From an uncultured Rikenellaceae bacterium (GTDB lineage: Bacteria; Bacteroidota; Bacteroidia; Bacteroidales; VadinHA17): a DNA stretch of 64,000 bases. The stretch is taken from contig CAYMFM010000004.1 in the NCBI GenBank assembly GCA_964389685.1, positions 1,310 to 65,309 of the forward strand. The letters are read 5' to 3'. Positions 33,366 to 46,044 of the stretch are shown piece by piece; position 1 is the first letter of the stretch, and every line of letters begins with the position of its first letter. Below the pieces are notes generated by a model, which saw nothing but the letters and a program-made list of their open reading frames with translations, ran no database searches and had not been told where the DNA came from. A program made the translations under genes and the position numbers.

Positions 33366-34031
33366 ATGAAGACGAGGGAACGGTATATTGCTTTTTTTGA
33401 CCTGGATGGTACCATACTGAAACAGAACAGTGGAAAAATACTGGTTTACCAGGCTTACAAATCAGGCATGATGGCCCGCAGGGAGTTATTCTTTGGAATG
33501 TATCTTTCGTTGTTGCATAAACTTGATCTGATGAGCCCTTTGAAGATAATAGAAAAGATGGCGGTGTGGGTGACTGGCTTCCCGGAAAAGGTTCTGCAGG
33601 AGTTTGCAGAAGAGGTGTTTAACAGTACCTTACAGGTTTTGATTCGATCTGAAATCCCATCTGAACTTCACTTTCATAAAGCCCGGAATGCTGAGCTGGT
33701 CATCCTTTCATCAGCGATCGGTGAAATCTGTTCCCCAGTCGCCAGGTTCCTGGGTATGGATGCTGTAATCAGCTCCAGACTTGAAGTTCATGAGGGACAT
33801 TATACGAGCTATCCGGAAGGCAACTTTTGTGTCGGGACCGAAAAATTCCTGAGACTTCAGGAATATTGCAGCATGAAAGGATATTTACCCGGTGAAGCAT
33901 ATTTCTACGGTGATACAATTTCCGATCTTCAGGCATTATCGGCGGTAGGGCATCCGGTTTGCGTCAATCCGGACCGAAAATTGAATAGGGTGGCCAATGC
34001 TAACGGATGGGATGTTCGACAGTGGACCTGA
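33366..34031 (+). CDS. HAD-IB family hydrolase
   Basis: The ATG at 33366 gives MKTRERYIAFFDLDGT (DxDGT motif I). GDTISD is motif IV. The track ORF from 33222 overlaps the upstream gene. Confidence 0.75.
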   Translation: MKTRERYIAFFDLDGTILKQNSGKILVYQAYKSGMMARRELFFGMYLSLLHKLDLMSPLKIIEKMAVWVTGFPEKVLQEFAEEVFNSTLQVLIRSEIPSELHFHKARNAELVILSSAIGEICSPVARFLGMDAVISSRLEVHEGHYTSYPEGNFCVGTEKFLRLQEYCSMKGYLPGEAYFYGDTISDLQALSAVGHPVCVNPDRKLNRVANANGWDVRQWT

Positions 34032-34086
34032 AGGTAGGAGAAACCGGGTATACGGCCAGTGAATTAGGCAGGGGTCATCTCTTTGC

Positions 34087-34674
34087 TTAGTCGTTCAGGA
34101 CATCATCCATAACCGCACGTAAACGGTCATAATTCTTTTCCATCAGATCCCTTTTTTCGGTATTGAAGAGCAGGGCTGTGGGATGGCGAAGAGGATAAAT
34201 GAGTTGATCATCCAACTCGATCAATTTACCAAATAAGGTGTGGTAATCTTTGCTTGCCGGCCTATCCAGATCAAACCGCATCAGGATGTAACGCGTGGCA
34301 TGAAATCCAAGTGGGACAATCAGTTTTGGATTTACAAGCGATATCTCCTGTTCCAGGTGTTTTGAGCACTCTGCAATTTCACGATTTGAAGGCCTGCGGC
34401 ATTTTGGGATATAACATTTAATCAGGTTGGTCATATAGATCTCATCGGTACCGATCCGGGACTTTGTGAGTAATTGGCGGAATATCTTACCGGAGGGTCC
34501 AACAAACATCTGCCCTGCTTTGTTTTCGAGCTCTCCCGGAGCCTGGGCAATCACCATGACCTTTGACCGGAAGTTGCCTTCTCCACATACAGCCTGTTGA
34601 CGGGTTGCTGCCAGCCCGCATGCCGTGCATCCCCGAACCTGTTGTTGCAGTAATGAGAAATCCGGATCCTTCAC
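34087..34674 (-). CDS. uracil-DNA glycosylase superfamily protein (family 4-like)
   Basis: N-terminal Cys cluster CTACGLA...CGEG, motif A region VIAQAPGELENKAGQMFVGPSG, and motif B-like RHPTALL. Confidence 0.7.
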   Translation of the reverse strand: MKDPDFSLLQQQVRGCTACGLAATRQQAVCGEGNFRSKVMVIAQAPGELENKAGQMFVGPSGKIFRQLLTKSRIGTDEIYMTNLIKCYIPKCRRPSNREIAECSKHLEQEISLVNPKLIVPLGFHATRYILMRFDLDRPASKDYHTLFGKLIELDDQLIYPLRHPTALLFNTEKRDLMEKNYDRLRAVMDDVLND

Positions 34675-34689
34675 CTCTGATTTTTATCA

Positions 34690-34697
34690 CAAAAGTA
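34690..34697 (-). promoter_or_regulatory. Bacteroidota -7 box (TActTTTG on the minus strand) upstream of the UDG gene
   Basis: Plus strand caaaagta, 16-23 nt upstream of the ATG at 34674. Confidence 0.4.
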
Positions 34698-34703
34698 AGA
34701 AAA

Positions 34704-34733
34704 GGAAATATTTTAGCGCGTTTTATTGTCTAA
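34704..34733 (+). promoter_or_regulatory. candidate ECF-type promoter P0: GGAAA-N18-TGTCTAA
   Basis: Tandem upstream copy of the motif. It shares the exact 12-mer TTGTCTAATGTA with P1. Confidence 0.45.
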
Positions 34734-34782
34734 TGTATGGAAAATGCTGTAATTTAACTGATCCCATTCAATAGGGCCGCAG

Positions 34783-34811
34783 GGAATAAAATGTACTTTT
34801 CATTTGTCTAA
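34783..34811 (+). promoter_or_regulatory. candidate ECF-type promoter P1: GGAAT-N17-TGTCTAA
   Basis: Same architecture as 36261-36289 and 39459-39487. It lies directly in front of the ECF sigma gene. Confidence 0.55.
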
Positions 34812-35388
34812 TGTAAAAAATAAGACTTTCGTGAAGGACTATTCTGGTTTTAGTGATCTGGATCTGATCTCTCAAACACGGAAGGGTGATAACGAAGCCT
34901 TCTCTGTTCTTATTTCCAGGTACAAGGATCAGGTAGCGAAAACCGTAATTAGCATGATGGGTAATTGCATGGAAGCAGATGACGTGGGTCAGGAGACCTT
35001 TATCCGGTTTTATCGTTCCATCGATAAATTTCGTGGAGACTCAACCCTGGGAACCTATTTGACCAAAATAGCCATGAATCTTTCCCTGAATGAATTGAAA
35101 AAACGAAAAAGAAACCGTTCGTTGTTCTCAGATAACCAGGAAAACAATGTTGAGATTCATCGTTCAGAGATAAAGGATCATCAGGATACGGATGATATTC
35201 AGGAGGAGGTACAGCTGGCAATACAGGAGCTTCCGTTCAAGTTCAGATCGGTCGTTGTTCTTCGCATGATCGAAGGGTATAGCACAAAAGAGACGGCTGA
35301 AATCCTGGACCTGCCAATGGGTACAGTGTTATCAAGATTAGCACGGGCACAGCAGAATTTGAAAGATAAATTAAAACATCTAATATAA
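34804..35388 (+). CDS. RNA polymerase ECF-type sigma-70 factor
   Basis: Region 2 (GDNEAFSVLISRYKDQV...ADDVGQETFIRFY) and region 4 (YSTKETAEILDLPMGTVLSRLARA). The start is uncertain: TTG at 34804 is the maximal ORF, and GTG at 34831 fits better with promoter P1. Confidence 0.88.
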   Translation: MSNVKNKTFVKDYSGFSDLDLISQTRKGDNEAFSVLISRYKDQVAKTVISMMGNCMEADDVGQETFIRFYRSIDKFRGDSTLGTYLTKIAMNLSLNELKKRKRNRSLFSDNQENNVEIHRSEIKDHQDTDDIQEEVQLAIQELPFKFRSVVVLRMIEGYSTKETAEILDLPMGTVLSRLARAQQNLKDKLKHLI

Positions 35389-35394
35389 ACGGCC

Positions 35395-35814
35395 ATGTTA
35401 GACCAACATCTATTAGATTTACTCATGCGATCACTGGATGGTGATCTGGATGATACGGATCGGACGATGCTTGAAAAAGCACTATCTGAATCGGAAGAGC
35501 TTAGAAAAGAAAAAAATAAGCTGATTCGCCTCAGAGAACTTGTTGGTTCCGGGGATTATCAGTTTAAACATGGATTTACGGATCGGGTGATGAACCGCCT
35601 GACAAAATCAAAGAACGGGAAAAGCATTGAATTTAATTTTGCCAGAGACCTGAACCGAATTTTCATGAGAGTTGCCATTACCGGAGTTGCTGCAATTATC
35701 CTGCTGCTCCTTAGCATTTATCTGACAACAGGTTCCGTTTCCCTCGATTCGTTAAGCGGAGCGGAATACTATTCAGAAGATAATGTGATCAGTTATTTGT
35801 TAATCGAAGAATAA
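35395..35814 (+). CDS. putative anti-sigma factor (single-pass membrane protein)
   Basis: 139 aa starting 7 nt after the sigma gene. N-terminal helical cytoplasmic part and one TM helix (VAITGVAAIILLLLSIYL). Confidence 0.55.
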   Translation: MLDQHLLDLLMRSLDGDLDDTDRTMLEKALSESEELRKEKNKLIRLRELVGSGDYQFKHGFTDRVMNRLTKSKNGKSIEFNFARDLNRIFMRVAITGVAAIILLLLSIYLTTGSVSLDSLSGAEYYSEDNVISYLLIEE

Positions 35815-35824
35815 ACAGACCGAC

Positions 35825-36244
35825 ATGAAAATTAAACCTGTTCTTGTTATTTCCGCCACACTTATCATTGGATTTGCTATTGGTTTTCTTACCAGCGGCA
35901 TGATAAACCATCAGCGGATGAAAAAATTCCGGTCGTTCAATTCTATGGAATCCTTTAAGCAGAGAACCATCCATATTCTTGAACCAACAGAAGAACAACT
36001 GAAGGAGATCCTGCCCCTGATCGATGAGTATGCAAAAAAAATGGATGGGATTCGGAAGGATTTCGGTAAAGAATTTTTTACCCTGATCAATGATTTCCAT
36101 AATGAACTTAAACCACTCCTTACCGAGGAGCAAATAGAGAGGCTGGAATCGCTGCTAAGACCTCCATCAAGGAATTCCCGTCATAGGGGTGATCCGAACG
36201 AGAGGGATCGGGGGCATGAGGGCCGACCTCCTGAAAGGCGGTGA
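35825..36244 (+). CDS. Spy/CpxP-family periplasmic protein (LTXXQ motif)
   Basis: N-terminal TM/signal, LTEEQIERL motif, and a basic Arg/Pro-rich tail. Confidence 0.6.
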   Translation: MKIKPVLVISATLIIGFAIGFLTSGMINHQRMKKFRSFNSMESFKQRTIHILEPTEEQLKEILPLIDEYAKKMDGIRKDFGKEFFTLINDFHNELKPLLTEEQIERLESLLRPPSRNSRHRGDPNERDRGHEGRPPERR

Positions 36245-36260
36245 TAATCCTCATCCGGAT

Positions 36261-36289
36261 GGAATAATCGAACCGGTTCCGTTGTCTAA
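36261..36289 (+). promoter_or_regulatory. candidate ECF-type promoter P2: GGAAT-N17-TGTCTAA
   Basis: Lies in the 86-nt gap before the second Spy/CpxP-like gene. The -10-like box ends 42 nt before the ATG at 36331. Confidence 0.55.
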
Positions 36290-36330
36290 CGGTTGAAAAC
36301 AAGTAAATATGAACATAAAAACAGATCAAA

Positions 36331-36900
36331 ATGAAAAAGATGGTTGTAACACAAATCATGATTTTTTTACTGGCAGTAACCCCTGGTTCGAATATTTTCT
36401 CCCAGCAGGGCAGGGGATTGGGTCCATGTGGATTGGGACTCGGACCGGGAAATTTTCCAAACTACCGGATATTGGACCTGACGGAGGAGCAGAAGACACA
36501 AATGAGGGAATTATGGCTTGAGCAATCGGAGGTTCTAAGCCCTCTGAATACAGAATTGCAGAAGCTCAGATTAGCCTATTGGGATCTTATTGCTGAATCA
36601 GATGAAGACCTGGATGCGATCAACAAGAACATAGACCAGCAAACTGATCTGCAGAAAAAAATCATGAAAGAAAATGCTCGTTTCAGAAAAAAAATGGAAG
36701 GGGTATTAACAGAAGAACAAAAGGAGTTGCTTGATTCGGAATTTCCTTTTGGCAGAGGCATGTATGGAAGATGGAATCCACCCGGACGCGGATACGGTCA
36801 GGGATACAGGGATGGATTTGGTAGAGGTTATGGCAGAGACTATGGACGAGGCTATGGCAGAGGCTATGGCAGAGGATTTGGACCGGGTGGAATCTGGTAG
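36331..36900 (+). CDS. Spy/CpxP-family periplasmic protein with C-terminal GYGRG repeat tail
   Basis: Signal peptide and two LTEEQ motifs (LTEEQKTQMREL, LTEEQKELL). The last 40 aa read GRGYGQGYRDGFGRGYGRDYGRGYGRGYGRGFGPGG. Confidence 0.65.
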   Translation: MKKMVVTQIMIFLLAVTPGSNIFSQQGRGLGPCGLGLGPGNFPNYRILDLTEEQKTQMRELWLEQSEVLSPLNTELQKLRLAYWDLIAESDEDLDAINKNIDQQTDLQKKIMKENARFRKKMEGVLTEEQKELLDSEFPFGRGMYGRWNPPGRGYGQGYRDGFGRGYGRDYGRGYGRGYGRGFGPGGIW

Positions 36901-36940
36901 AACCCGGGAAGGCAAATTTTCATGGTTAGTTTTAGGTACG

Positions 36941-36984
36941 GGAAGGGTGTCTGAACATATGGTTGGGCACCCTCCTCTTTTTTT
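36941..36984. terminator. intrinsic terminator-like hairpin between convergent genes
   Basis: ggaagggtg (36941-36949) pairs with caccctcc (36968-36975) with one bulge. It is followed by a T7 run that overlaps the stop of the minus-strand TPR gene. Confidence 0.45.
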
Positions 36985-39226
36985 ATGTCCCCTGGTTCAG
37001 GGAATACTGGAGATAGTCCAGTACTATGGGAATATCATCCTGATTTACCCCGTTTTGCAGTAGAAACTTTCTGTCATCATTAAAGGTCATCAGAAAGTTC
37101 TCAAGATTATTCTCTTCATGAATGATGCTCTTTTTATACATGTTTATTGCTTCCAGGGGATTGCCCAGGCACCATTCTACGTGTCCGAAGTTTATGTAAT
37201 CATAAATCGATACTTCCTCCTTGAATAATTTACTGTAATATTTCTGCGACTGATCCAGTTTTCCCAGGACGAAATAGCACCAGGCAATTGGGCGTAAAAC
37301 TTTTTTATTGGAAGGATCAAGATATTCTACTTTAAAGTAATATTTGAGTGCTGTTTCATACTCTTCCAGGTCCAGGTAGCAGTGACCGATTGATGCCTGT
37401 GTAAACAGGTTGTCAGGCTCCAGTTTTTCTGATTCAAGATAATATTCCAGTGCTTTTTCCGGTTGTTTCAGTTTTCTGTAACAATAGCCGATCTTTTTCA
37501 CGTTCCAGGCACGGTTTTTATCATACAATTCACCCTGCAGGTAATAATCGAGTGCCTCTTCGATTCTTCCGAGCTTCTGATAACAAAAAGCGATCTTTTC
37601 CAGGATTTCGTAGCTTTTCTCTTCTGTTTTGTTCAGGTATTGATATATATCCAGTGCCTCTTCATAATATTCTTTTTCAAAAAGGTATTCAGCAATATTC
37701 CGGAGGGTACTTTTATCGGTTAACAACAGGTTAAAAAAGGCAGAATTATAGATATCGAGTTTCCCGGCAAAAACATCTTCAAATTCATTTTTATAGGGAT
37801 ATAGCTTATAAAACCGGTAGAGGTCCTGGAGGTACTGTTGATAGACCGCTTTTGTTTTTTTAAACTGGTCAAGGATTTCATCCTGTTCTGCAAGTTCATT
37901 CATTCCTTTCAATTCCGCATTGAACAGTTCAAGCATCATGGTTTTTTGAACTTTGGGCATGTGTTTTACGTTCAGAATAAAGGAGTATTTATCAGAATTA
38001 CAAAGGAATGATGTTTGAAAAAGGCCTTCGATAAAGAGCTCTTTGTCAAAACTGGTTTCTTCCCCCATCAGGGAATGATCAATAACTTCATTCTCAGGAT
38101 AAAAAGGTATAAACCAGTTGGTTATTTCCCTGAAAAAGTCAAATTGCTTCAACTGCGAGAAGGCTGTCAAAAAAACATCCGCTCCTTCCATTTGAAGCTG
38201 CGTAAATTCTTCCACCTTTTTGTATAGGTCATTTGAATCTTCAAAGACAATTTCCCAGTCAGGGTTCTTTTCCTCTCCAGGATCTTCGGGGACCAGTTTA
38301 TCGAGGTCAAGCTTATCTTCCAGTTTTGGCCGAAGTTTTACCATTTCGGGAATGATCTCTTCACGTAGTTTACGGGATATCTTCTCTGTCTCCCTCGAGC
38401 GGATAATCTGAATGATGATCGCTTCAATCTCCTTCTGGATCCCTTTTTTATCCTGCAGGATCTTTAATTTCGCAGAGATCTCAGGATAAAGGTAAAGTCT
38501 TTTGTCATACCGGTACATGGAGAGGATCAGCCCGATCATAGCCCGTTGTGAAACCTCCTGCTGGTTGTCTTCATAAAAATTAAACAGGGCAAAAACTTTT
38601 CGTTCGTCAAAATGACGAAATAAGCTCAATGTTATAGCACTAACGAACAAGCATTTCTCATACCATCGAAACGGTTTTCTTCTCCTGATCAGATCAATCA
38701 GCTCCAGGTCAACATCGGTCAGTTTATTTGTCAGCCAGAAATGATTAAACAGGGTTATTACCAGGCTTTTAAATCGTTTTGACTGAGGGGATGTGGGATC
38801 TGAGCCTAATTCGAAGTTTTCATCCATGATTTCATCCAGCTCCCGTTTAAAGCTAAGGTCATCCAGTCGTTCAATAATGCTTTTGCCGGTCAGTTTCTGC
38901 TGCTGTTCCAACTCAGCCTGAATGGTGAACGTGTGCCAGCCTGAATCCTGGTAAAGGATGTTATACTGTACACGATCAGCTAATTCCAGGATAGAAGCCA
39001 GAAGGTGATAGTATATTTTTTGCCGCTCCGGATCAGCTACTCCTTCAATGGTATATTTCAACATGGATTCGTAGGTTGATTCCAGGTTATCGAATTGAAC
39101 CCGCAAATCTCCCATTTTTGATACCACGATCAGATCCGATAATGCCTCCAACGCCTCTTTCACTCTTTTCTGGTAAATCAGGTAACAGATCCTCTCGTAC
39201 TTCTTCTTTAATTCAGTTGTTTTCAT
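36983..39226 (-). CDS. large tetratricopeptide-repeat protein with uncharacterised N-terminal 480-aa helical region
   Basis: 747 aa. The C-terminal ~270 aa contain clear TPR units (AFCYQKLGRIEEALDYY, GYCYRKLKQPEKALEYY, GHCYLDLEEYETALKYY). No signal peptide. Confidence 0.7.
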   Translation of the reverse strand: MKTTELKKKYERICYLIYQKRVKEALEALSDLIVVSKMGDLRVQFDNLESTYESMLKYTIEGVADPERQKIYYHLLASILELADRVQYNILYQDSGWHTFTIQAELEQQQKLTGKSIIERLDDLSFKRELDEIMDENFELGSDPTSPQSKRFKSLVITLFNHFWLTNKLTDVDLELIDLIRRRKPFRWYEKCLFVSAITLSLFRHFDERKVFALFNFYEDNQQEVSQRAMIGLILSMYRYDKRLYLYPEISAKLKILQDKKGIQKEIEAIIIQIIRSRETEKISRKLREEIIPEMVKLRPKLEDKLDLDKLVPEDPGEEKNPDWEIVFEDSNDLYKKVEEFTQLQMEGADVFLTAFSQLKQFDFFREITNWFIPFYPENEVIDHSLMGEETSFDKELFIEGLFQTSFLCNSDKYSFILNVKHMPKVQKTMMLELFNAELKGMNELAEQDEILDQFKKTKAVYQQYLQDLYRFYKLYPYKNEFEDVFAGKLDIYNSAFFNLLLTDKSTLRNIAEYLFEKEYYEEALDIYQYLNKTEEKSYEILEKIAFCYQKLGRIEEALDYYLQGELYDKNRAWNVKKIGYCYRKLKQPEKALEYYLESEKLEPDNLFTQASIGHCYLDLEEYETALKYYFKVEYLDPSNKKVLRPIAWCYFVLGKLDQSQKYYSKLFKEEVSIYDYINFGHVEWCLGNPLEAINMYKKSIIHEENNLENFLMTFNDDRKFLLQNGVNQDDIPIVLDYLQYSLNQGT

Positions 39227-39458
39227 ACTCTTTTTTTGGCAAACGATCGCTTTATCATGAAGTACAGATCGATCTGCCTTAATTTTGTTGGGAACAAATC
39301 CTGAAGAGATCTACCAAATATTATTCCATAAACCGGAAAATTGACTTTTTGGCAGTTAAGAATAGCATAAAACCCACTTTCATGGAATAAATGTATCACA
39401 ATTATCCGTCACATCAGTGCGGCATTTTTTTAAAAATTAAAATTTACTGAAAAGAATG

Positions 39459-39487
39459 GGAATAAATCGTTACAGTAAGTGGTCTAA
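39459..39487 (+). promoter_or_regulatory. candidate ECF-type promoter P3: GGAAT-N17-GGTCTAA
   Basis: Ends 29 nt upstream of the ATG at 39516, the first gene of the lipoprotein-TolC-MacA-MacB cluster. Confidence 0.5.
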
Positions 39488-39515
39488 CAAGCGAATTGAA
39501 ATTTACATTAAAACA

Positions 39516-40349
39516 ATGCAAATAGCAGTGCGTTATTACAGTTATCTGATTTTGCCGTTCCTTCTCTCGGGTTGCAGTAATAAACCCATACATAACAGCA
39601 CATGGAACAGCAATGAAATAATAATAGATGGCATTTTTTCAGATTGGGAAAAAGACCTGACATACGATAAAAAATCAAAACTGTTGTATAATGTAACCAA
39701 TGATCACACCAATCTTTTGCTATGTTTAAAGGTTACAGAGCCGTCTGTAACAAACAAGATCATGATGAGAGGTCTTACGGTATGGGTAGATACAACGGGG
39801 AAACAGAAAAAAAATCTGGGCATTAAATACCCGATGGGTCGAAGTGGAAGTATGAGACCTGCGGACCAGAGGACACCTCGTCAGCCGATGCCGGAGCAGC
39901 AGAGAGAACGGCCTGTCAGACCCCAAATTCAGAACCGAATGGAATTGATCGGATTCAAAGAAAGGGGGAAATCTGAGGTGGTTCCTGTTGGAGATACAAC
40001 AGGTATTGAAATAGCCGTAAAGGAAGATCCGTACGGTGGCATGCAATATGAAGCAAAGATACCTTTGCAGGTTATTTTGAAAGATCCGGACGAATTTTTA
40101 TCGGCTACTGAGACGTTGATCAGCGTTGGATTTGAAACAGGGTATATTAAAATGGATAGCAATACCGGAGGTGGTCAGACCGGTGGGCGAGTGGGAGGTG
40201 GAGGAGGGGGGAGGCCCTCCGGAGGTGGAGGAAGACCAACTGGTGGCGGTCAGCCTGGAGGAATGACACCCCAACAAGGGGATATGGCAAACATGACTCA
40301 GGCAACCCGGTTGTGGATAAAACAAATAAAACTTGTAATTTCAGAATAA
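39516..40349 (+). CDS. lipoprotein of unknown function with Gly/Arg/Pro-rich C-terminal segment
   Basis: The ATG at 39516 gives MQIAVRYYSYLILPFLLSGCSNK (lipobox). The segment TGGGQTGGRVGGGGGGRPSGGGGRPTGGGQPGG is encoded at 40164-40280. Confidence 0.65.
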   Translation: MQIAVRYYSYLILPFLLSGCSNKPIHNSTWNSNEIIIDGIFSDWEKDLTYDKKSKLLYNVTNDHTNLLLCLKVTEPSVTNKIMMRGLTVWVDTTGKQKKNLGIKYPMGRSGSMRPADQRTPRQPMPEQQRERPVRPQIQNRMELIGFKERGKSEVVPVGDTTGIEIAVKEDPYGGMQYEAKIPLQVILKDPDEFLSATETLISVGFETGYIKMDSNTGGGQTGGRVGGGGGGRPSGGGGRPTGGGQPGGMTPQQGDMANMTQATRLWIKQIKLVISE

Positions 40350-40445: not shown

Positions 40446-41879
40446 ATGAAAAAAATAATTATCGGCATATTGGCCATCTGTAACATCGGCTGGTCTTTCA
40501 CTCAGGAAAACAAATGGACCCTGGCAGAATGCATTCAGCATGCCCTGGACCGGAATATTACGATAAACCAGAGGAAGCTAAACAATGAGTTATCTGAAAT
40601 AACCCTGGAACAATCCAAAGCCGATTTGCTGCCTAACCTTACGGCTTCAGGAAGTCAGAGCTGGAACTTCGGACGGTCCGTTGATCCCTATACCAATGAT
40701 TATGTTAGTACAAATGTCGGGAGCAATAATTTTGGATTAAGCACCAGCGTAACCCTGTTTGACGGATTGCAGAGTATTAATACCATTAAAAAGAACCAGA
40801 TTGATGTGGAATCGGGGACACTGGATCTTGAGCAAACAAAGAACGATATCATTCTCAGTGTCACACAGGCTTACCTGCAGGTCCTTTTTGCCTATGAACA
40901 GGTCGAAAATACCTCCATCAGCCTGGAATCTACCGCTGCCCAGGTGGAGAGAACGCAAAAACTGGTGAATGCAGGAAGCTCTCCTGAAGGGGATCTTTTC
41001 AAGATCAATTCGCAGCTTGCGTCCGATCAGTACAGCCTGGTAAATGCAGAAAACCAATTATCCATGGCCAAAGTGAACCTGATGCAGATCATGGAATTGC
41101 CGGTCGAAGAGGAATTTGATGTTGTCATCCCAGAATTTGATGTTACAACAATCGGAATTGCCTATTCCGGAGCGTCTGATGAAATCTATGCAAAAGCACT
41201 GGAGGTTCAACCGGAAATAGAAAGCTCGCAACTTAAGGTTGCCAGTGCCGAGCAGAGCCTGAAAATTGCCAGGGGTGCCCTCTATCCGCGACTTTCACTA
41301 TCTGGAAGCCTGGGTTCTGGATATTCCAATGCACGAACCCTGAGGCAATATGGAGAGCCAACTACAGTGATTCAGGAGGTTGGATATTTGCAAAGTGACC
41401 CTTCAGAAATTGTTGTAGCTGAACGGGAGTTTACTTCATCTTCAATCGCTGACTATAATTTTGGTAATCAGATCAGGGATAATTTGAACGAATCGGTGAG
41501 ACTGAGCCTTAGCATTCCCATCTTTAACCGGTTCCAGGTGAGAAACAACATCAGCCGTTCAAAAATCAATGTCGAAACGGCTGAACTGAACAAACAGAAT
41601 ACAGAAAACCAGTTGAGAAAAACAATCGAACAGGCGTATAACGATCTTGTATCTTCCGCTAAAAATTATGACGCTGCAGTGGAGCAACTGAAATCCCTGG
41701 AGCGTTCCTATAATGACACGGAACGAAAATATGAACTGGGTATGGTCAATGCGACCGATTATCTCATTGAAAAAAATAACTTTGAGAATTCAAAGTATAG
41801 CCTCACGAGGGCAAAATATGAATACATTTTTACCTTTAAGATCCTTGATTTTTACCAGGGGAATCCGATTACCTTTTGA
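40446..41879 (+). CDS. tolC: TolC-family outer-membrane efflux protein
   Basis: 477 aa. Signal peptide and two tandem OEP repeats (LTLEQSKADLLPNL..., ALYPRLSLSGSLG...). Confidence 0.88.
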   Translation: MKKIIIGILAICNIGWSFTQENKWTLAECIQHALDRNITINQRKLNNELSEITLEQSKADLLPNLTASGSQSWNFGRSVDPYTNDYVSTNVGSNNFGLSTSVTLFDGLQSINTIKKNQIDVESGTLDLEQTKNDIILSVTQAYLQVLFAYEQVENTSISLESTAAQVERTQKLVNAGSSPEGDLFKINSQLASDQYSLVNAENQLSMAKVNLMQIMELPVEEEFDVVIPEFDVTTIGIAYSGASDEIYAKALEVQPEIESSQLKVASAEQSLKIARGALYPRLSLSGSLGSGYSNARTLRQYGEPTTVIQEVGYLQSDPSEIVVAEREFTSSSIADYNFGNQIRDNLNESVRLSLSIPIFNRFQVRNNISRSKINVETAELNKQNTENQLRKTIEQAYNDLVSSAKNYDAAVEQLKSLERSYNDTERKYELGMVNATDYLIEKNNFENSKYSLTRAKYEYIFTFKILDFYQGNPITF

Positions 41880-41907
41880 TGTGGAAATAATGTTAATTTA
41901 GAAAACA

Positions 41908-43320
41908 ATGAAAAAGAAACTTATAATTACAGCCGTTGTCCTGATACCGGTAGTTATTGCAGGATTTTTTATTCTCAGAAAGGATAAAACATTTGATATA
42001 GAATGGGAACCCAAAGAGGTTGAGAAAGGAGACATAAACATTGAGGTGACTGCAACCGGAACCCTGGAAGCAGTAACCGAAGTTGAGGTTGGAACTCAGG
42101 TTTCCGGTATCCTCTCCGAATTATATGTGGATTTTAATTCAAAAGTCAGGAAAGGACAGGTGATCGCAAGACTGGATACTACCACGCTTGCAGCCCAGGT
42201 ATTCGATTCCAGAGCAAACCTTGAACGGGTAATGATCCGTTTGAACCAGGCTGAACGGGATTGGAAAAGAACCCAGCAACTTTTTGAAGAGAAAGTGGTA
42301 GCCCAGGTGGAGTATGACCAGGCACTCGATGACTATGAAACCGCCAAATCAAATGTACTATCGGCTGAGGCACAGCTAAACAGAAATATTATTAACCTGA
42401 ATTACGCAACCATCACAGCTCCCATCGATGGAATTGTGATTTCAAAAAATGTCGAAATGGGACAAACCGTTGCTGCCAGTTTTAACTCACCCACGCTTTT
42501 CAATATCGTGAATGATCTGACAAAGATGCAGGTGGAAGCCAGTGTGGATGAAGCAGATATCGGTCAGATCAAGGAGGGGCAGAGTGTTACTTTTACGGTA
42601 GATGCTTTTCAGGATGAACAGTTTGAAGGAGTGGTCCGGCAGGTTCGCTATCAGCCGGTCATTGTTTCCAATGTGGTAAACTATACGGTCATTGTAGATG
42701 TAGCCAACCCGGATATGAAGCTGCTTCCCGGAATGACAGCCAATATAACCGTGAATATTGATAAGCGGGAAGATGTATTGAAGGTTCCCTCCCGGGCACT
42801 TAGCTTTACTCCTCCTACAGTATACCTTGCGCTTCTATATGCAGAACTGCCGGATTCAGTCAAACAGCAGCAGGAAGAGAGAATCGCTGAAATGACAGAA
42901 CGGATGGAGTCTATGGGATTGTCACAGCAGCAAATCGACCAGATGGTCGAACGGGTGAGATTGATGGGAATATTTGGGGGTGGACAGCAACAACGCCCTG
43001 AAGGAATGGCCAGGAGGTTGGGTGGCGGTACGACTGGAGGTCAGAGAACTTCGGGAGAGATGCCTCAAACGGGCAATAGATCGCAACGTTTTGGCAATTT
43101 TGGGCAGGTGTGGATAAAAGATGGAGAAGGAGTGCGACCTGTACGGGTGCGAACAGGGATCACCGACGGCAGTAATGTGGAAATCATTAGTGAAGAACTG
43201 GAAGAAGGTACATTGGTTGTGATATCAGCATTGTATGATGAAGAGCAGGAAGAACAGGTAACCCAGACAAACAACCCATTTGCACCTGCCGGTCCGGGTA
43301 GAGGAAGAAGGATGAGGTAG
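41908..43320 (+). CDS. macA: MacA/HlyD-family periplasmic adaptor subunit with Gln/Gly/Arg-rich insertion
   Basis: TGTLEAVTEVEVGTQVSGIL lipoyl motif, a coiled-coil hairpin, and a beta-barrel. A low-complexity insert of about 90 aa includes GGGQQQRPEG...GGGTTGGQRTSG (42976-43104). Confidence 0.85.
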   Translation: MKKKLIITAVVLIPVVIAGFFILRKDKTFDIEWEPKEVEKGDINIEVTATGTLEAVTEVEVGTQVSGILSELYVDFNSKVRKGQVIARLDTTTLAAQVFDSRANLERVMIRLNQAERDWKRTQQLFEEKVVAQVEYDQALDDYETAKSNVLSAEAQLNRNIINLNYATITAPIDGIVISKNVEMGQTVAASFNSPTLFNIVNDLTKMQVEASVDEADIGQIKEGQSVTFTVDAFQDEQFEGVVRQVRYQPVIVSNVVNYTVIVDVANPDMKLLPGMTANITVNIDKREDVLKVPSRALSFTPPTVYLALLYAELPDSVKQQQEERIAEMTERMESMGLSQQQIDQMVERVRLMGIFGGGQQQRPEGMARRLGGGTTGGQRTSGEMPQTGNRSQRFGNFGQVWIKDGEGVRPVRVRTGITDGSNVEIISEELEEGTLVVISALYDEEQEEQVTQTNNPFAPAGPGRGRRMR

Positions 43321-43682
43321 GTTTGAGTTATGCCATAGGCCCGCCTGCTGCGGGCAGGCATCCCTTCGGGATAAGTTAATGGTTGAAAGTTAGTGGTGAG
43401 TAATGAGTCCCGCCTACTCCGTCAGCTGACGGATACGGCAGGCGAGGGGTGAGAGGTGAGATGGAGTGACTAAGAGACGAGGAGACTGTGTGACGGGTAA
43501 CGGAGGATAGGAAGAATAAAGAAGCAAAGGGAAGGATGAAGGATGAAGGATGAAGGATTAAGGATGAAGGATGAAGTAGCAAAGAGCAAAGAGTATAGAG
43601 TAAGGGGAAAAAACCGGGAGCAGTGACGAGTGACGAGTGACGAGAAAAAATAGTTAACATCTATTCAAGGGAGTTAAAATTT
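43321..43682. repeat. intra-operon spacer A: GC hairpin cores plus an array of about 28 degenerate heptanucleotide repeat units
   Basis: One continuous 7-nt register from 43447 to 43644. GAAGGAT x6 at 43531-43572 and GTGACGA x3 at 43623-43643. Hairpins at 43339-43359 and 43360-43372, and a 16-nt palindrome at 43418-43433. Confidence 0.85.
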
Positions 43683-44426
43683 ATGGATAAAATCATTTCA
43701 GTACGAAACCTGACCAAGGTGTACGATATGGGGTTGGTGAAGGTGCATGCTTTACGTGGTATAGATCTGGATATTTATACGGGAGAATTCACCGCCATTA
43801 TGGGTTCCAGCGGATCCGGGAAGTCAACCTTTATGAATATTGTTGGTTGCCTCGATCTTCCAACCGAAGGTGAATATTTCCTGGATGGCAAAGATGTGAG
43901 TAAATTGAACAAAGACCAGCTGGCCAAAACGAGAAACCTGAAAATAGGATTTGTGTTTCAAACATATAACCTGTTGTCCAGGACTTCAGCACTGGAGAAT
44001 GTCGAGTTACCTTTATTATATAATCCTTCAATTCGAGCAAAAGAGCGTAAGGAGAGGGCCATGCAATCCCTTGAAATGGTGGGACTGGCCGATTGGCACC
44101 ACCATTATCCAAACCAGTTATCTGGTGGACAACAACAGCGGGTGGCTATAGCAAGGGCTTTGGTTAACAACCCGGTAATAATTCTTGCCGATGAACCAAC
44201 CGGTAACCTCGATACCCGTACCAGTTATGAAGTAATGGAGATTTTCCAGGATCTGAATAGCAGGGGAATGACCATAACCCTGGTTACACACGAATATGAT
44301 ATTTCCCAGCTGGCCGGAAGAGTTGTGAGTTTCCGTGACGGGAGGGTTAGTAAGGAGATGGTTGTTGAGAAGATAAGGAATGCGCGTGATGAGCTGGCAA
44401 AACTTCCTGTAGAAGATGAATATTAA
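43683..44426 (+). CDS. macB: MacB/LolD-type ABC transporter ATP-binding protein
   Basis: Walker [10 protein letters not shown], signature LSGGQQQR, Walker [12 protein letters not shown]. Confidence 0.92.
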
Positions 44427-44444
44427 TAGTAAAATCATGAAAGC

Positions 44445-45671
44445 ATGAAAATACTCAACTTATTTGTTGTCGCATACCGGTCGCTGAACAAGAACAAAGT
44501 CCGGTCATTACTTACCATGCTTGGGATAATTATTGGGGTGGCATCGGTGATCGCTATGATTGCTATAGGACAGGGTTCAAGGGATAGTATTGAAGAACAG
44601 ATCTCCAGCATGGGAACGAATGTAATCATGCTTTTCCCGGGTGCATCGTTCCGGGGAGGTGTTGCAACTGCAGCCGGTGAGGCACAAAGCATAAATATGG
44701 AAGATGTTAATGCTATCCGGGATAATTGTCCATCGATTAAATACATCAGCCCGGTTTCCAGGGCAAGCGGACAGGTGATCGCTGGCAATAGTAACTGGAA
44801 CACACAGGTGTACGGAGTATATCCGGAATATATGGGTATTCGCAATCTCGAGATCTCCTCCGGTGAGATGTTTACCGATGTTGATGAGCGAAGATCAGCT
44901 AAAGTTTGCATCATTGGGACTACAGTGGCTGAAAACCTCTTTGACGAGTATACAGATCCTGTCGGACAAAAGATACGGATCCGGAATATTCCCTTTACCA
45001 TAATCGGAGTGCAAAAGAAAAAGGGTGGAAGCAGCATGGGATCCGATCAGGATGATATCATTTATGCTCCCTATTCAACCGTCCAGAAACGGATGAGGGG
45101 CGGAACCTCAACCAACGTGCAGCAAGTTTACCTTTCCTCTATATCGGAAAAGCATATTGAAAAAGCAAGTGAGGAAATTGACCAGCTGTTGCGGGATCGA
45201 AAGAAACTGAGCCGGTATGAAGATCCTCCCTATATGATCCGGACTCAAAGTGAAATTACAGAAATGTTTACATCCACTTCCGATACGATGATCATCCTGC
45301 TTGCCAGCATAGCCAGCATTTCACTGATCGTAGGAGGAATCGGGATCATGAATATCATGCTTGTTTCCGTAACGGAAAGAACAAGGGAAATTGGACTGCG
45401 TATGGCCGTAGGGGCAAGGGGAAGAGATATCCTGCGCCAGTTTCTCCTGGAAGCAGTATTGCTTAGCCTTATTGGCGGATTAATTGGTGTGGGAGGAGGA
45501 ATAGGCGCATCCAAACTGCTCGTCTCTGTTATGAACTGGCCGGTTTCTGTAACATCCTATTCCATTATTCTTGCCTTTGCATTTGCTTTCGTTATCGGTG
45601 TATTCTTTGGGTGGTACCCGGCACGAAAAGCTGCCTTACTTGTACCAATGGATGCGTTGAGGTATGAATAA
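44445..45671 (+). CDS. MacB-type ABC transporter permease (MacB periplasmic domain + FtsX domain)
   Basis: 408 aa. TM1, a periplasmic domain of about 220 aa, then three C-terminal TM helices with the FtsX-type motif TREIGLRMAVGARGRDI. Confidence 0.9.
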   Translation: MKILNLFVVAYRSLNKNKVRSLLTMLGIIIGVASVIAMIAIGQGSRDSIEEQISSMGTNVIMLFPGASFRGGVATAAGEAQSINMEDVNAIRDNCPSIKYISPVSRASGQVIAGNSNWNTQVYGVYPEYMGIRNLEISSGEMFTDVDERRSAKVCIIGTTVAENLFDEYTDPVGQKIRIRNIPFTIIGVQKKKGGSSMGSDQDDIIYAPYSTVQKRMRGGTSTNVQQVYLSSISEKHIEKASEEIDQLLRDRKKLSRYEDPPYMIRTQSEITEMFTSTSDTMIILLASIASISLIVGGIGIMNIMLVSVTERTREIGLRMAVGARGRDILRQFLLEAVLLSLIGGLIGVGGGIGASKLLVSVMNWPVSVTSYSIILAFAFAFVIGVFFGWYPARKAALLVPMDALRYE

Positions 45672-46044
45672 AGTGACGGGTGACGAGTGACGAGTGACGA
45701 GTTCCGCCTACGTCAAGACTGCAGCGGACAAGAGATGAGAAATGAGAGGTGAGTTTTGAGTTGTGAGAAATGAGTAGTGAGTTGACTTTGTAAAAGTGAG
45801 ACTTTGTGACGATGAGAGGTGAGATAGAGCGACGAAGCGACTGAGAGACGGAGAGATGAAAGCTGTCACCAGTCCGAAAAAACAAGAACTAAAAACTGAA
45901 ACCAAATTGTTGAACCACAAATATTCATAATAAAAACATCTATTAACATTCTTGTCACGCGTCACGCGTTACTCGTCACTTTTACACAATGTTAACCGAA
46001 AACTATTAACAATATCAATACTAATCCTTTAAAACTAAACAATC
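45672..46044. repeat. spacer B: heptanucleotide repeat array bounded by inverted GTGACGR arrays
   Basis: GTGACGR x4 at 45673-45700. NNNTGAG units in one register from 45733 to 45823. The reverse-complement array gtcacgc gtcacgc gttactc gtcac lies at 45954-45979. Confidence 0.85.

Follow-up and report, generated by a model that had tools for sequence, protein, structure and literature searches.

In a stretch of 64,000 nucleotides from an uncultured Rikenellaceae bacterium (assembly GCA_964389685.1, contig CAYMFM010000004.1, positions 1,310 to 65,309), hereafter the window, a bipartite sequence element lies upstream of the gene for an extracytoplasmic function (ECF) sigma factor, of a gene for a Spy/CpxP-like protein and of an operon for a predicted MacB-type export pump. 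Three copies of this element, at 34783-34811, 36261-36289 and 39459-39487, are very probably real promoters of the ECF type, and we estimate a probability of about 0.85 that they are read by the sigma factor encoded at 34831-35388. ECF sigma factors are commonly autoregulated and held by co-transcribed membrane anti-sigma factors, and the promoters they recognize have a -35 box similar to GGAAC and a -10 box that contains GTC.

The Repeated Element in the Window

Searching the window for GGAAW-N17/18-KGTCTAA gives four matches and no more, every one of them on the plus strand. The number expected by chance is 0.08 on average, and none of 100 dinucleotide-preserving shuffles reached four. These matches are the four sites described in the initial annotation (34704-34733, 34783-34811, 36261-36289 and 39459-39487), and no other full match was found on either strand of the window, a looser pattern being also tried. 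The read-out of the sequences agreed with that annotation in two further details, namely the extended box GGAATAA in three of the four sites and the exact duplication of the 12-mer TTGTCTAATGTA at 34726-34737 and 34804-34815. The sequence and the gene map likewise bore out that every site is intergenic and placed 5′ of a plus-strand gene.

Site 2, at 34783-34811, combines a -35 box GGAATAAA with a -10 box TTGTCTAA and ends 19 nt 5′ of the GTG at 34831; it is the predicted autoregulatory promoter of the sigma gene, P(sigma). Site 3 (GGAATAAT-N13-TTGTCTAA, 36261-36289) ends 41 nt 5′ of the ATG at 36331 and is a predicted internal promoter, P(spy2). Site 4 (GGAATAAA-N13-GTGGTCTAA, 39459-39487) ends 28 nt 5′ of the ATG at 39516 and is the predicted promoter of the pump operon, P(pump). 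The remaining one, site 1 (34704-34733, GGAAA-N18-TGTCTAA), matches only weakly; it may be a remnant or a secondary promoter and is considered separately below. With GGAAT and GTC at a fixed distance, the element has the makeup of a sigma-E/RpoE-type promoter, the fifth base being T and not C; the promoters of E. coli sigma-E carry GGAACTT at -35 and GTC at -10 (PMC6648896).

A scan for sigma-70-type promoters gave 29 matches versus 25.5 in shuffles, which is no excess; for a genome from Bacteroidota, such a scan is hardly informative. Rfam gave no family match within 34000-40000, and the reading of the sites as structured RNA was dropped on that account.

Conservation across Relatives

Orthologs of the sigma factor share 44-64% identity with it, clearly apart from the paralogs (at most 37%), and are present in 109 of the 151 same-family genomes sampled. 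Consistent with autoregulation, each of the first 30 orthologs examined has the motif upstream: GGAAT-N18-GTC lies within 120 nt of the gene in 29 of these loci and at about 175 nt in the thirtieth (G015). Another 12 genomes could be scored, and all 12 have the equivalent of P(sigma) 5′ of the sigma ortholog.

By mapping the 7-17 kb around the sigma gene in 20 relatives, it was possible to see a conserved order of genes and motifs. It runs from a uracil-DNA glycosylase gene on the minus strand through a motif, the sigma gene, the anti-sigma gene, a third gene, a second motif and the LTXXQ gene to a tetratricopeptide repeat (TPR) gene on the minus strand, followed by another motif and by the genes for a lipoprotein (not always present), TolC, adaptor, ATPase and permease. 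The motif stands 5′ of the LTXXQ gene, orthologous to spy2, in all 12 mapped loci that have this gene, and 5′ of the TolC operon in all 8 mapped loci with an adjacent operon; the mapped loci that lack the LTXXQ gene or the TolC operon also lack the corresponding motifs.

The consensus of 35 sites taken from other genera was gGGAATAAA-N13-tTGTC(T/A)AA. In this set GGAAT and GTC are invariant (35/35) and 18 nt apart; the columns of GGAATA and TGTC hold 1.8-2.2 bits each, and most columns of the spacer and flanks hold 0.0-0.3 bits. The motif recurs with invariant spacing at the same three transcription units in about 20 genera, with diverged flanks and spacers. To judge by this comparison, the pattern is the phylogenetic footprint of a bipartite, oriented signal of fixed spacing. 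The proposal of the initial annotation, in which cognate and autoregulated ECF promoters tie the sigma/anti-sigma module to the Spy-like gene and to the TolC-adaptor-MacB operon, finds its support in this comparative genomics.

Specificity in the Genome and Sites outside the Window

The genome is a metagenome-assembled genome (MAG) of 4.45 Mb in 175 contigs, with the window on contig C4. Over both strands (8.9 Mb), GGAATAA-N16-GTCTAA occurs four times, and three of these occurrences are the window sites, which fall within 4.7 kb. The fourth, on the minus strand of another contig (C5:94510-94538), is intergenic and lies 23 nt 5′ of a gene for a secreted O-methyltransferase, whose operon has as second gene one for a protein of 439-476 aa with no family.

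A weight matrix was trained on the 35 sites, all from other genera, and the reversed genome served as null. The initial annotation had suggested a scan of the genome and of orthologous loci with a matrix from the four window sites; with the matrix from other genera, the three window sites ranked first to third genome-wide, with 30.5 bits for P(sigma), 24.5 for P(spy2) and 23.6 for P(pump). The next intergenic matches were on C60 (23.5 bits, rank 4) and the C5 site (17.8 bits). Matches of at least 16 bits on C32, C2, C13, C34, C10 and C64 were rejected as chance, considering that they are inside long open reading frames (ORFs); several of the matches within ORFs have no GTC, among them the two highest (C32 and C2). 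The reversed genome gave 7 matches of at least 16 bits, including a single one of 25.2 bits.

The site on the minus strand of C60 (5923-5952) is intergenic, 144 nt 5′ of an operon that encodes an HlyD adaptor (516 aa), a MacB_PCD/FtsX permease (455 aa) and a TolC protein (497 aa), and it is predicted as the promoter of a second pump. Orthologs of this pump have a site in the same register in 31 of 34 loci, 100-302 nt upstream, with 8-29 bits (at least 15.7 in 26 of them). Of the remaining three loci, two do not extend far enough upstream and the other is that of G030; a 35th locus, from G036, has no site either. Within the set, only G030 and G036 lack a sigma ortholog. The C5 site, for its part, is kept in 4 of 4 same-genus genomes despite diverged spacers and also in some other genera, and in two genomes (G032 and G020) the motif is directly 5′ of the ortholog of the second gene of the C5 operon. 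The regulon had been described initially as compact; the link between the three window units stands, and the two conserved sites on other contigs extend it beyond the window.

Co-Variation of the Motif with the Sigma Gene

Sites of the form GGAATA-N15-TTGTCWA were counted by hand from the rows of the pattern search. The genomes with the sigma ortholog held 70 sites in 19 genomes, or 3.7 per genome, and the same-family genomes without it held 2 sites in 13 genomes, or 0.15 per genome; by our own estimate, the base composition would give about 0.35 per genome by chance. In a single genus (g13), the 4 sigma-bearing genomes that were searched held 11 sites and the 11 sigma-less ones held 2. Many species of this genus (G030, G065, G075 and others) have lost the sigma ortholog and sister species keep it, so the sigma-less species form a natural loss series that is usable as a set of controls. 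The sigma-less G030 retains the C60-type pump, with the motif gone. Taking into account that other ECF paralogs persist in the sigma-less genomes, these counts tie the motif to the ortholog of the 34831-35388 sigma factor and not to another paralog.

Fourteen additional exact matches to the pattern in sigma-bearing relatives were all intergenic (14/14) and located 22-230 nt before a gene. The genes that follow encode an HtrA/DegP-like protease, proteins of 866-870 aa, an SPFH-like protein, an ABC ATPase, small secreted helical proteins and a methyltransferase, these labels being read from the sequences alone and not from family models; many of them encode exported or envelope proteins. The proteins of 866-870 aa have orthologs in this genome, on contigs C16 and C12. 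The orthologs in this genome of the motif-bearing genes of the relatives (HtrA, sortilin/BNR, SPFH, ABC ATPase and methyltransferase) do not carry the motif, and for this reason they were not added to its regulon. Since the motif is missing from these orthologs, the periphery of the predicted regulon is variable by lineage around a core formed by the sigma operon and the pump or pumps.

Alternative Explanations

A genuine ECF-type promoter could be read by a different RpoE-like ECF sigma factor, of which 34831-35388 would be merely one target. ECF paralogs are numerous in these genomes, with 14-33 first-look candidates in each and paralogs at 29-37% identity, and motifs of the GGAAY/GTC type are common to several ECF groups (PMC6648896). 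Nevertheless, we regard this possibility as improbable, because every genome carrying this sigma gene also has the motif 5′ of it, the motif falls to chance level in the 13 same-family genomes that lack the ortholog and keep other ECF paralogs, and the ortholog of the C60 pump is kept without the motif in sigma-less genomes. Still more improbable, to the point of being almost negligible, is that a conventional transcription factor, either activator or repressor, binds the two blocks, or that they are some other DNA signal and not a promoter. This explanation gains from the fact that initiation at the sites is deduced from their sequence; on the other hand, the blocks are neither palindromic nor direct repeats of each other, their distance is strictly that of a -35 and a -10 box (GGAAT-N18-GTC in the 35 training sites), they are always oriented toward the gene, at 19-155 nt from its start codon, no Rfam family matches at the sites, and their sequence fits the known sigma-E type (PMC6648896).

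The reading of the three sites as promoters of this sigma factor has several points against it. Its assignment to 34831-35388 comes down to position, the logic of autoregulation and phyletic co-variation, and the positions of the start sites at the promoters are a prediction from sequence. A single high matrix score is not proof, because the reversed-genome null contains a match of 25.2 bits; the case is carried by clustering and conservation. The periphery of the regulon differs between genera, and the C5 site is conserved in some lineages only. Finally, considering that the genome is a MAG in 175 contigs, further sites may be missing.

Site 1 (34704-34733) deserves a judgement of its own. 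The initial annotation had placed two tandem promoters before the sigma gene; site 2 is conserved and has the top score, and site 1 is weak and limited to the genus. Its -35 box can be taken as GGAAA at a spacing of one extra nucleotide or as GAAAT at the canonical spacing, and either choice breaks features that are invariant in the 35 training sites. Its score of 15.3 bits is within the range of the reversed-genome null (7 matches of at least 16 bits), and it was found only in four same-genus loci, nearly identical to each other and too similar to be informative, being absent from all other genera. The similarity between the regions of sites 1 and 2 is limited to the 12-mer TTGTCTAATGTA, with a score that 3 of 500 shuffles reached. 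In favor of a function, a match of at least 15 bits on the same strand and no more than 100 nt from a real site is expected with a chance of about 1e-4 (our own estimate from the null counts), the -10 box is a perfect TTGTCTAA followed by the same three bases as in site 2, and in the genus of G029 a second GGAATAAA-N-GGTCTGA is found 64 nt upstream of the main site. It is doubtful that site 1 works as a second, tandem promoter of the sigma operon, the other option being a local remnant; it is at best a weak secondary promoter of uncertain function.

Genes of the Sigma Operon

Gene calls were based on ORFs. The sigma gene (34831-35388, plus strand) encodes 185 aa from a GTG start and matches Pfam Sigma70_r2 (2.7e-15), Sigma70_r4_2 (5.9e-12) and Sigma70_ECF. 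The protein is assigned to the ECF sigma factors (group IV), considering that it has regions 2 and 4 only and that its length is in the typical range of about 180-200 aa. In NCBIfam, the superfamily model TIGR02937 gave 98.3 bits versus a cutoff of 42.9 and was the only one to pass its cutoff; the equivalog models of SigW (134.3 versus 209 bits) and RpoE (121.7 versus 236 bits) were not reached. The closest solved structures are SigW (5wuq_A, 7e-27), AlgU and RpoE (1or7, 1e-25). The start of this gene had been placed originally at the TTG in 34804. As this TTG falls inside the -10 box of site 2 and all the orthologs align from the GTG at 34831, the latter is most likely the start.

The next gene (35395-35814, plus strand) starts 7 nt past the sigma stop codon and encodes a single-pass membrane protein of 139 aa. 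It has an N-terminal anti-sigma domain without cysteine, with a weak zf-HC2 match below the cutoff (0.0042) and a weak match with RsiW (5wuq_C, E = 0.09), and only about 20 aa extend beyond the membrane helix. Of the 20 relatives mapped, 18 have an anti-sigma gene directly 3′ of the sigma gene; among the matches listed for the other two (L048 and L049) there was none to an anti-sigma factor. By position and domain, this protein is likely the co-transcribed anti-sigma factor of the neighboring sigma factor.

The third gene (35825-36244, plus strand), designated spy1, encodes a membrane-anchored helical protein of 139 aa with the motifs PTEEQ and LTEEQ and an arginine-rich tail, with no detectable family, and it is conserved as the third member of the operon in all mapped relatives. 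Its AlphaFold2 (AF2) model had a mean predicted local distance difference test (pLDDT) of 60.7, with a helical core in residues 41-111. Homology to Spy, CpxP or CnrX was sought and rejected: there was no match in Pfam, in NCBIfam or among PDB sequences, BLASTP against spy2 gave E = 0.12, the homolog search returned only 15 close relatives, and Foldseek with the AF2 model against the PDB gave nothing at E of 0.001 or below. Two Spy/CpxP-like proteins had been announced in the initial annotation, and the name can be kept for the product of 36331-36900, which belongs to the LTXXQ/Spy/CpxP family, and not for that of 35825-36244, which matches none.

The Spy-Like Gene and the Pump Operon

The spy2 gene (36331-36900, plus strand) encodes a secreted LTXXQ protein of 189 aa with a tail rich in glycine, arginine and tyrosine. 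It passes the Pfam gathering thresholds of Metal_resist (2e-07; 31.7 versus 29.2 bits) and LTXXQ (4.5e-06; 27.7 versus 24.3 bits), and it also matched NCBIfam Spy (8e-09) and the PDB entries of Spy (3o39, 0.0058) and CpxP (3qzc, 0.0093). There was no terminator-like hairpin between spy1 and spy2. After spy2, a hairpin with a stem of 11 pairs followed by the T-run CCTCTTTTTT (36944-36973, plus strand) resembles a terminator that would close the unit from the sigma gene to spy2. A perfect palindrome of 10 bp, GAACCGGTTC, stands in the spacer of P(spy2) (window positions 36268-36281), and the genomes of the same genus preserve it with a single difference. It may be fortuitous or may represent an operator overlapping the promoter.

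The pump operon starts with a lipoprotein gene (39516-40349, plus strand) whose product of 277 aa has an LLSGC lipobox and a glycine-rich tail and no match in Pfam or NCBIfam. The maximal ORF, from the ATG at 39456, overlaps site 4. The ATG at 39516, as given in the initial annotation, was kept as the likely start because the lipoprotein signal peptide follows from it; together with the sigma gene (GTG 34831), this makes two gene starts corrected. Orthologs of the lipoprotein were found only in its own genus and in G031. In G020 (locus L046) a glycine- and arginine-rich remnant of 76 aa, with its own copy of the motif, replaces it. Downstream, all on the plus strand, are the genes of a TolC-like outer membrane factor (40446-41879, Pfam OEP 7.5e-61), an HlyD-type adaptor (41908-43320, HlyD_D23 5e-23), an ABC ATPase (43683-44426, ABC_tran 2.6e-33) and a MacB-type permease (44445-45671, MacB_PCD 1.4e-55 and FtsX 1.3e-22). 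The four domain sets of the MacAB-TolC type are therefore present in 40446-45671, a predicted tripartite ABC pump whose synteny is kept in the relatives at 51-83% identity.

Proposed Mechanism

At rest, the single-pass anti-sigma factor (35395-35814), co-transcribed with the sigma gene, would hold the sigma factor at the membrane. Very little of this anti-sigma factor would reach into the periplasm, and its gene is always accompanied by the third gene; a role of the third gene product (35825-36244) as co-sensor is therefore plausible, by analogy to CnrX with CnrY (PMC6851896) and with no support from homology. A signal from the envelope would free the sigma factor, which would then raise the transcription of its own operon in a positive feedback and would induce the secreted Spy/CpxP-like protein and the pump formed by the lipoprotein, TolC, adaptor and MacB ABC components. 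Site 36261 would act in this scheme as an internal promoter, adding to the read-through from P(sigma). The units outside the window, that is, the adaptor-FtsX-TolC pump of C60 and the secreted O-methyltransferase of C5 with its neighbor of 439-476 aa, would also be induced.

Comparison with Known Systems

The system works like the envelope-stress regulons of the sigma-E and SigW type and its layout parallels that of CnrYXH-CnrCBA, and we consider it a conventional regulon with no new regulatory principle. As in E. coli sigma-E, an autoregulated ECF sigma factor shares its transcript with a single-pass anti-sigma factor, here as a prediction; the boxes are GGAAY at -35 and GTC at -10 with a similar spacing; and the targets are envelope proteins, which in one relative include an HtrA/DegP-like protease. 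It differs from sigma-E in that the -35 box is GGAATAAA and not GGAACTT, in that the anti-sigma factor, in contrast to RseA, is nearly without a periplasmic domain, with no RseB-like gene present, and in that the outputs are a Spy-like protein and MacB-type pumps instead of the Bam/Lpt/small RNA core. With the SigW-RsiW pair of B. subtilis it shares the combination of an ECF sigma factor and a single-pass anti-sigma factor of class I type, and both proteins (the anti-sigma factor weakly) have their best match in the same entry, 5wuq. SigW recognizes the consensus TGAAAC...CGTA, and both this promoter consensus and its regulon are unlike those described here, the organism under study being Gram-negative.

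In the CnrYXH-CnrCBA system of Cupriavidus metallidurans (ECF291), two sigma-dependent promoters drive the regulatory operon and a tripartite efflux pump (PMC6851896). The resemblance resides in the set of an ECF sigma factor, a short membrane anti-sigma factor and a membrane-anchored helical partner, and in the fact that the regulatory and pump operons each have a (here predicted) sigma-dependent promoter. However, CnrH is more distant (4cxf, 3e-10) than the matches mentioned above, the sigma gene comes first here, the anti-sigma factor best matches RsiW (class I) and is not CnrY-like (class II), the third gene has no match with CnrX or PF13801, the pumps are ABC (MacB) and not RND, and nothing here points to metal sensing. 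The anti-sigma factor of CnrY type, the CnrX sensor and the RND pump as target, which define that system, were not found. The operon also bears a resemblance to the description of ECF281 by Casas-Pastor et al. 2021 (PMC7826278), where the +1 gene is for a zinc-finger anti-sigma factor and the +2 gene for a heavy-metal-resistance protein (PF13801): here the gene at +1 has a weak zf-HC2 match with no cysteine, that at +2 lacks PF13801, and PF13801/LTXXQ appears at +3, above the cutoff.

The product of 36331-36900 is of the LTXXQ family and has weak direct similarity to Spy and CpxP, outputs of the E. coli Cpx response; unlike them it has an additional tail rich in glycine, arginine and tyrosine and its predicted regulator is an ECF sigma factor instead of the two-component system CpxAR. 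The ATPase and the permease of the pump are separate polypeptides here, in contrast to E. coli MacB, where they are fused.

Much is known of envelope-stress signalling in Proteobacteria and Firmicutes and, to our knowledge, little in Bacteroidales. In the literature searches no description of this Bacteroidales regulon was found, and a search of Todor et al. (PMC7776599) for the motif text gave no matching passage. We propose only tentatively that the module is the envelope-stress response of this Bacteroidales family, possibly of the wider Fibrobacteres-Chlorobi-Bacteroidetes (FCB) group, with a switch of the sigma-E/SigW type, outputs of the Cpx type, two MacB-type exporters and the third gene product as a CnrX-like co-sensor. 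If this were true, the sigma factor, the anti-sigma factor nearly devoid of a periplasmic domain and the co-sensor would form a three-part sensing unit that has not been described. The result is a testable regulon defined by sequence, with one sigma factor, a precise promoter consensus and five target units in this genome, and with a conserved core (the sigma operon and a MacB-type pump) in about 20 genera of the family labelled Rikenellaceae. It predicts that the MacB-type tripartite pumps and the Spy-like protein would be co-induced by damage to the envelope.

Additional Observations

In a Rhodothermales MAG (JABDKO010000250.1, locus L055, 1538-4433), from a different lineage at the phylum level, genes for a Spy-like protein, a lipoprotein, a sigma factor (43% identity), an anti-sigma factor and a membrane-anchored homolog of the third gene product follow in one run, with a GGAATGAAA-N-CGTCAAA site (GGAAT-N18-GTC) 36 nt 5′ of the first gene; being a single case, it is a lead only.

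In the region 1-6400 of C60 there is no ABC ATPase gene beside the pump genes, and the next gene resembles that of a malate/lactate dehydrogenase; the ATPase for this pump must be encoded elsewhere or shared. In the window, gaps of 362 nt (43321-43682) and 373 nt (45672-46044) are located inside the pump operon and after it, respectively, both without a sigma motif; the equivalent gap measures 110-275 nt in the relatives.

Between the two sigma-dependent units, on the minus strand, there is a gene (36983-39226) for a protein of 747 aa with C-terminal TPR repeats (Pfam TPR families) and an N-terminal region of about 480 aa without family. It occupies this position in 20 of 20 mapped relatives (44-99% identity), has no motif of its own and is also present in loci without the Spy-like gene and the pump operon. 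Low-complexity tails rich in glycine and arginine are present in three of the predicted regulon products, namely the Spy-like protein (36778-36900), the lipoprotein (40150-40349) and the product of the third gene (36180-36244).

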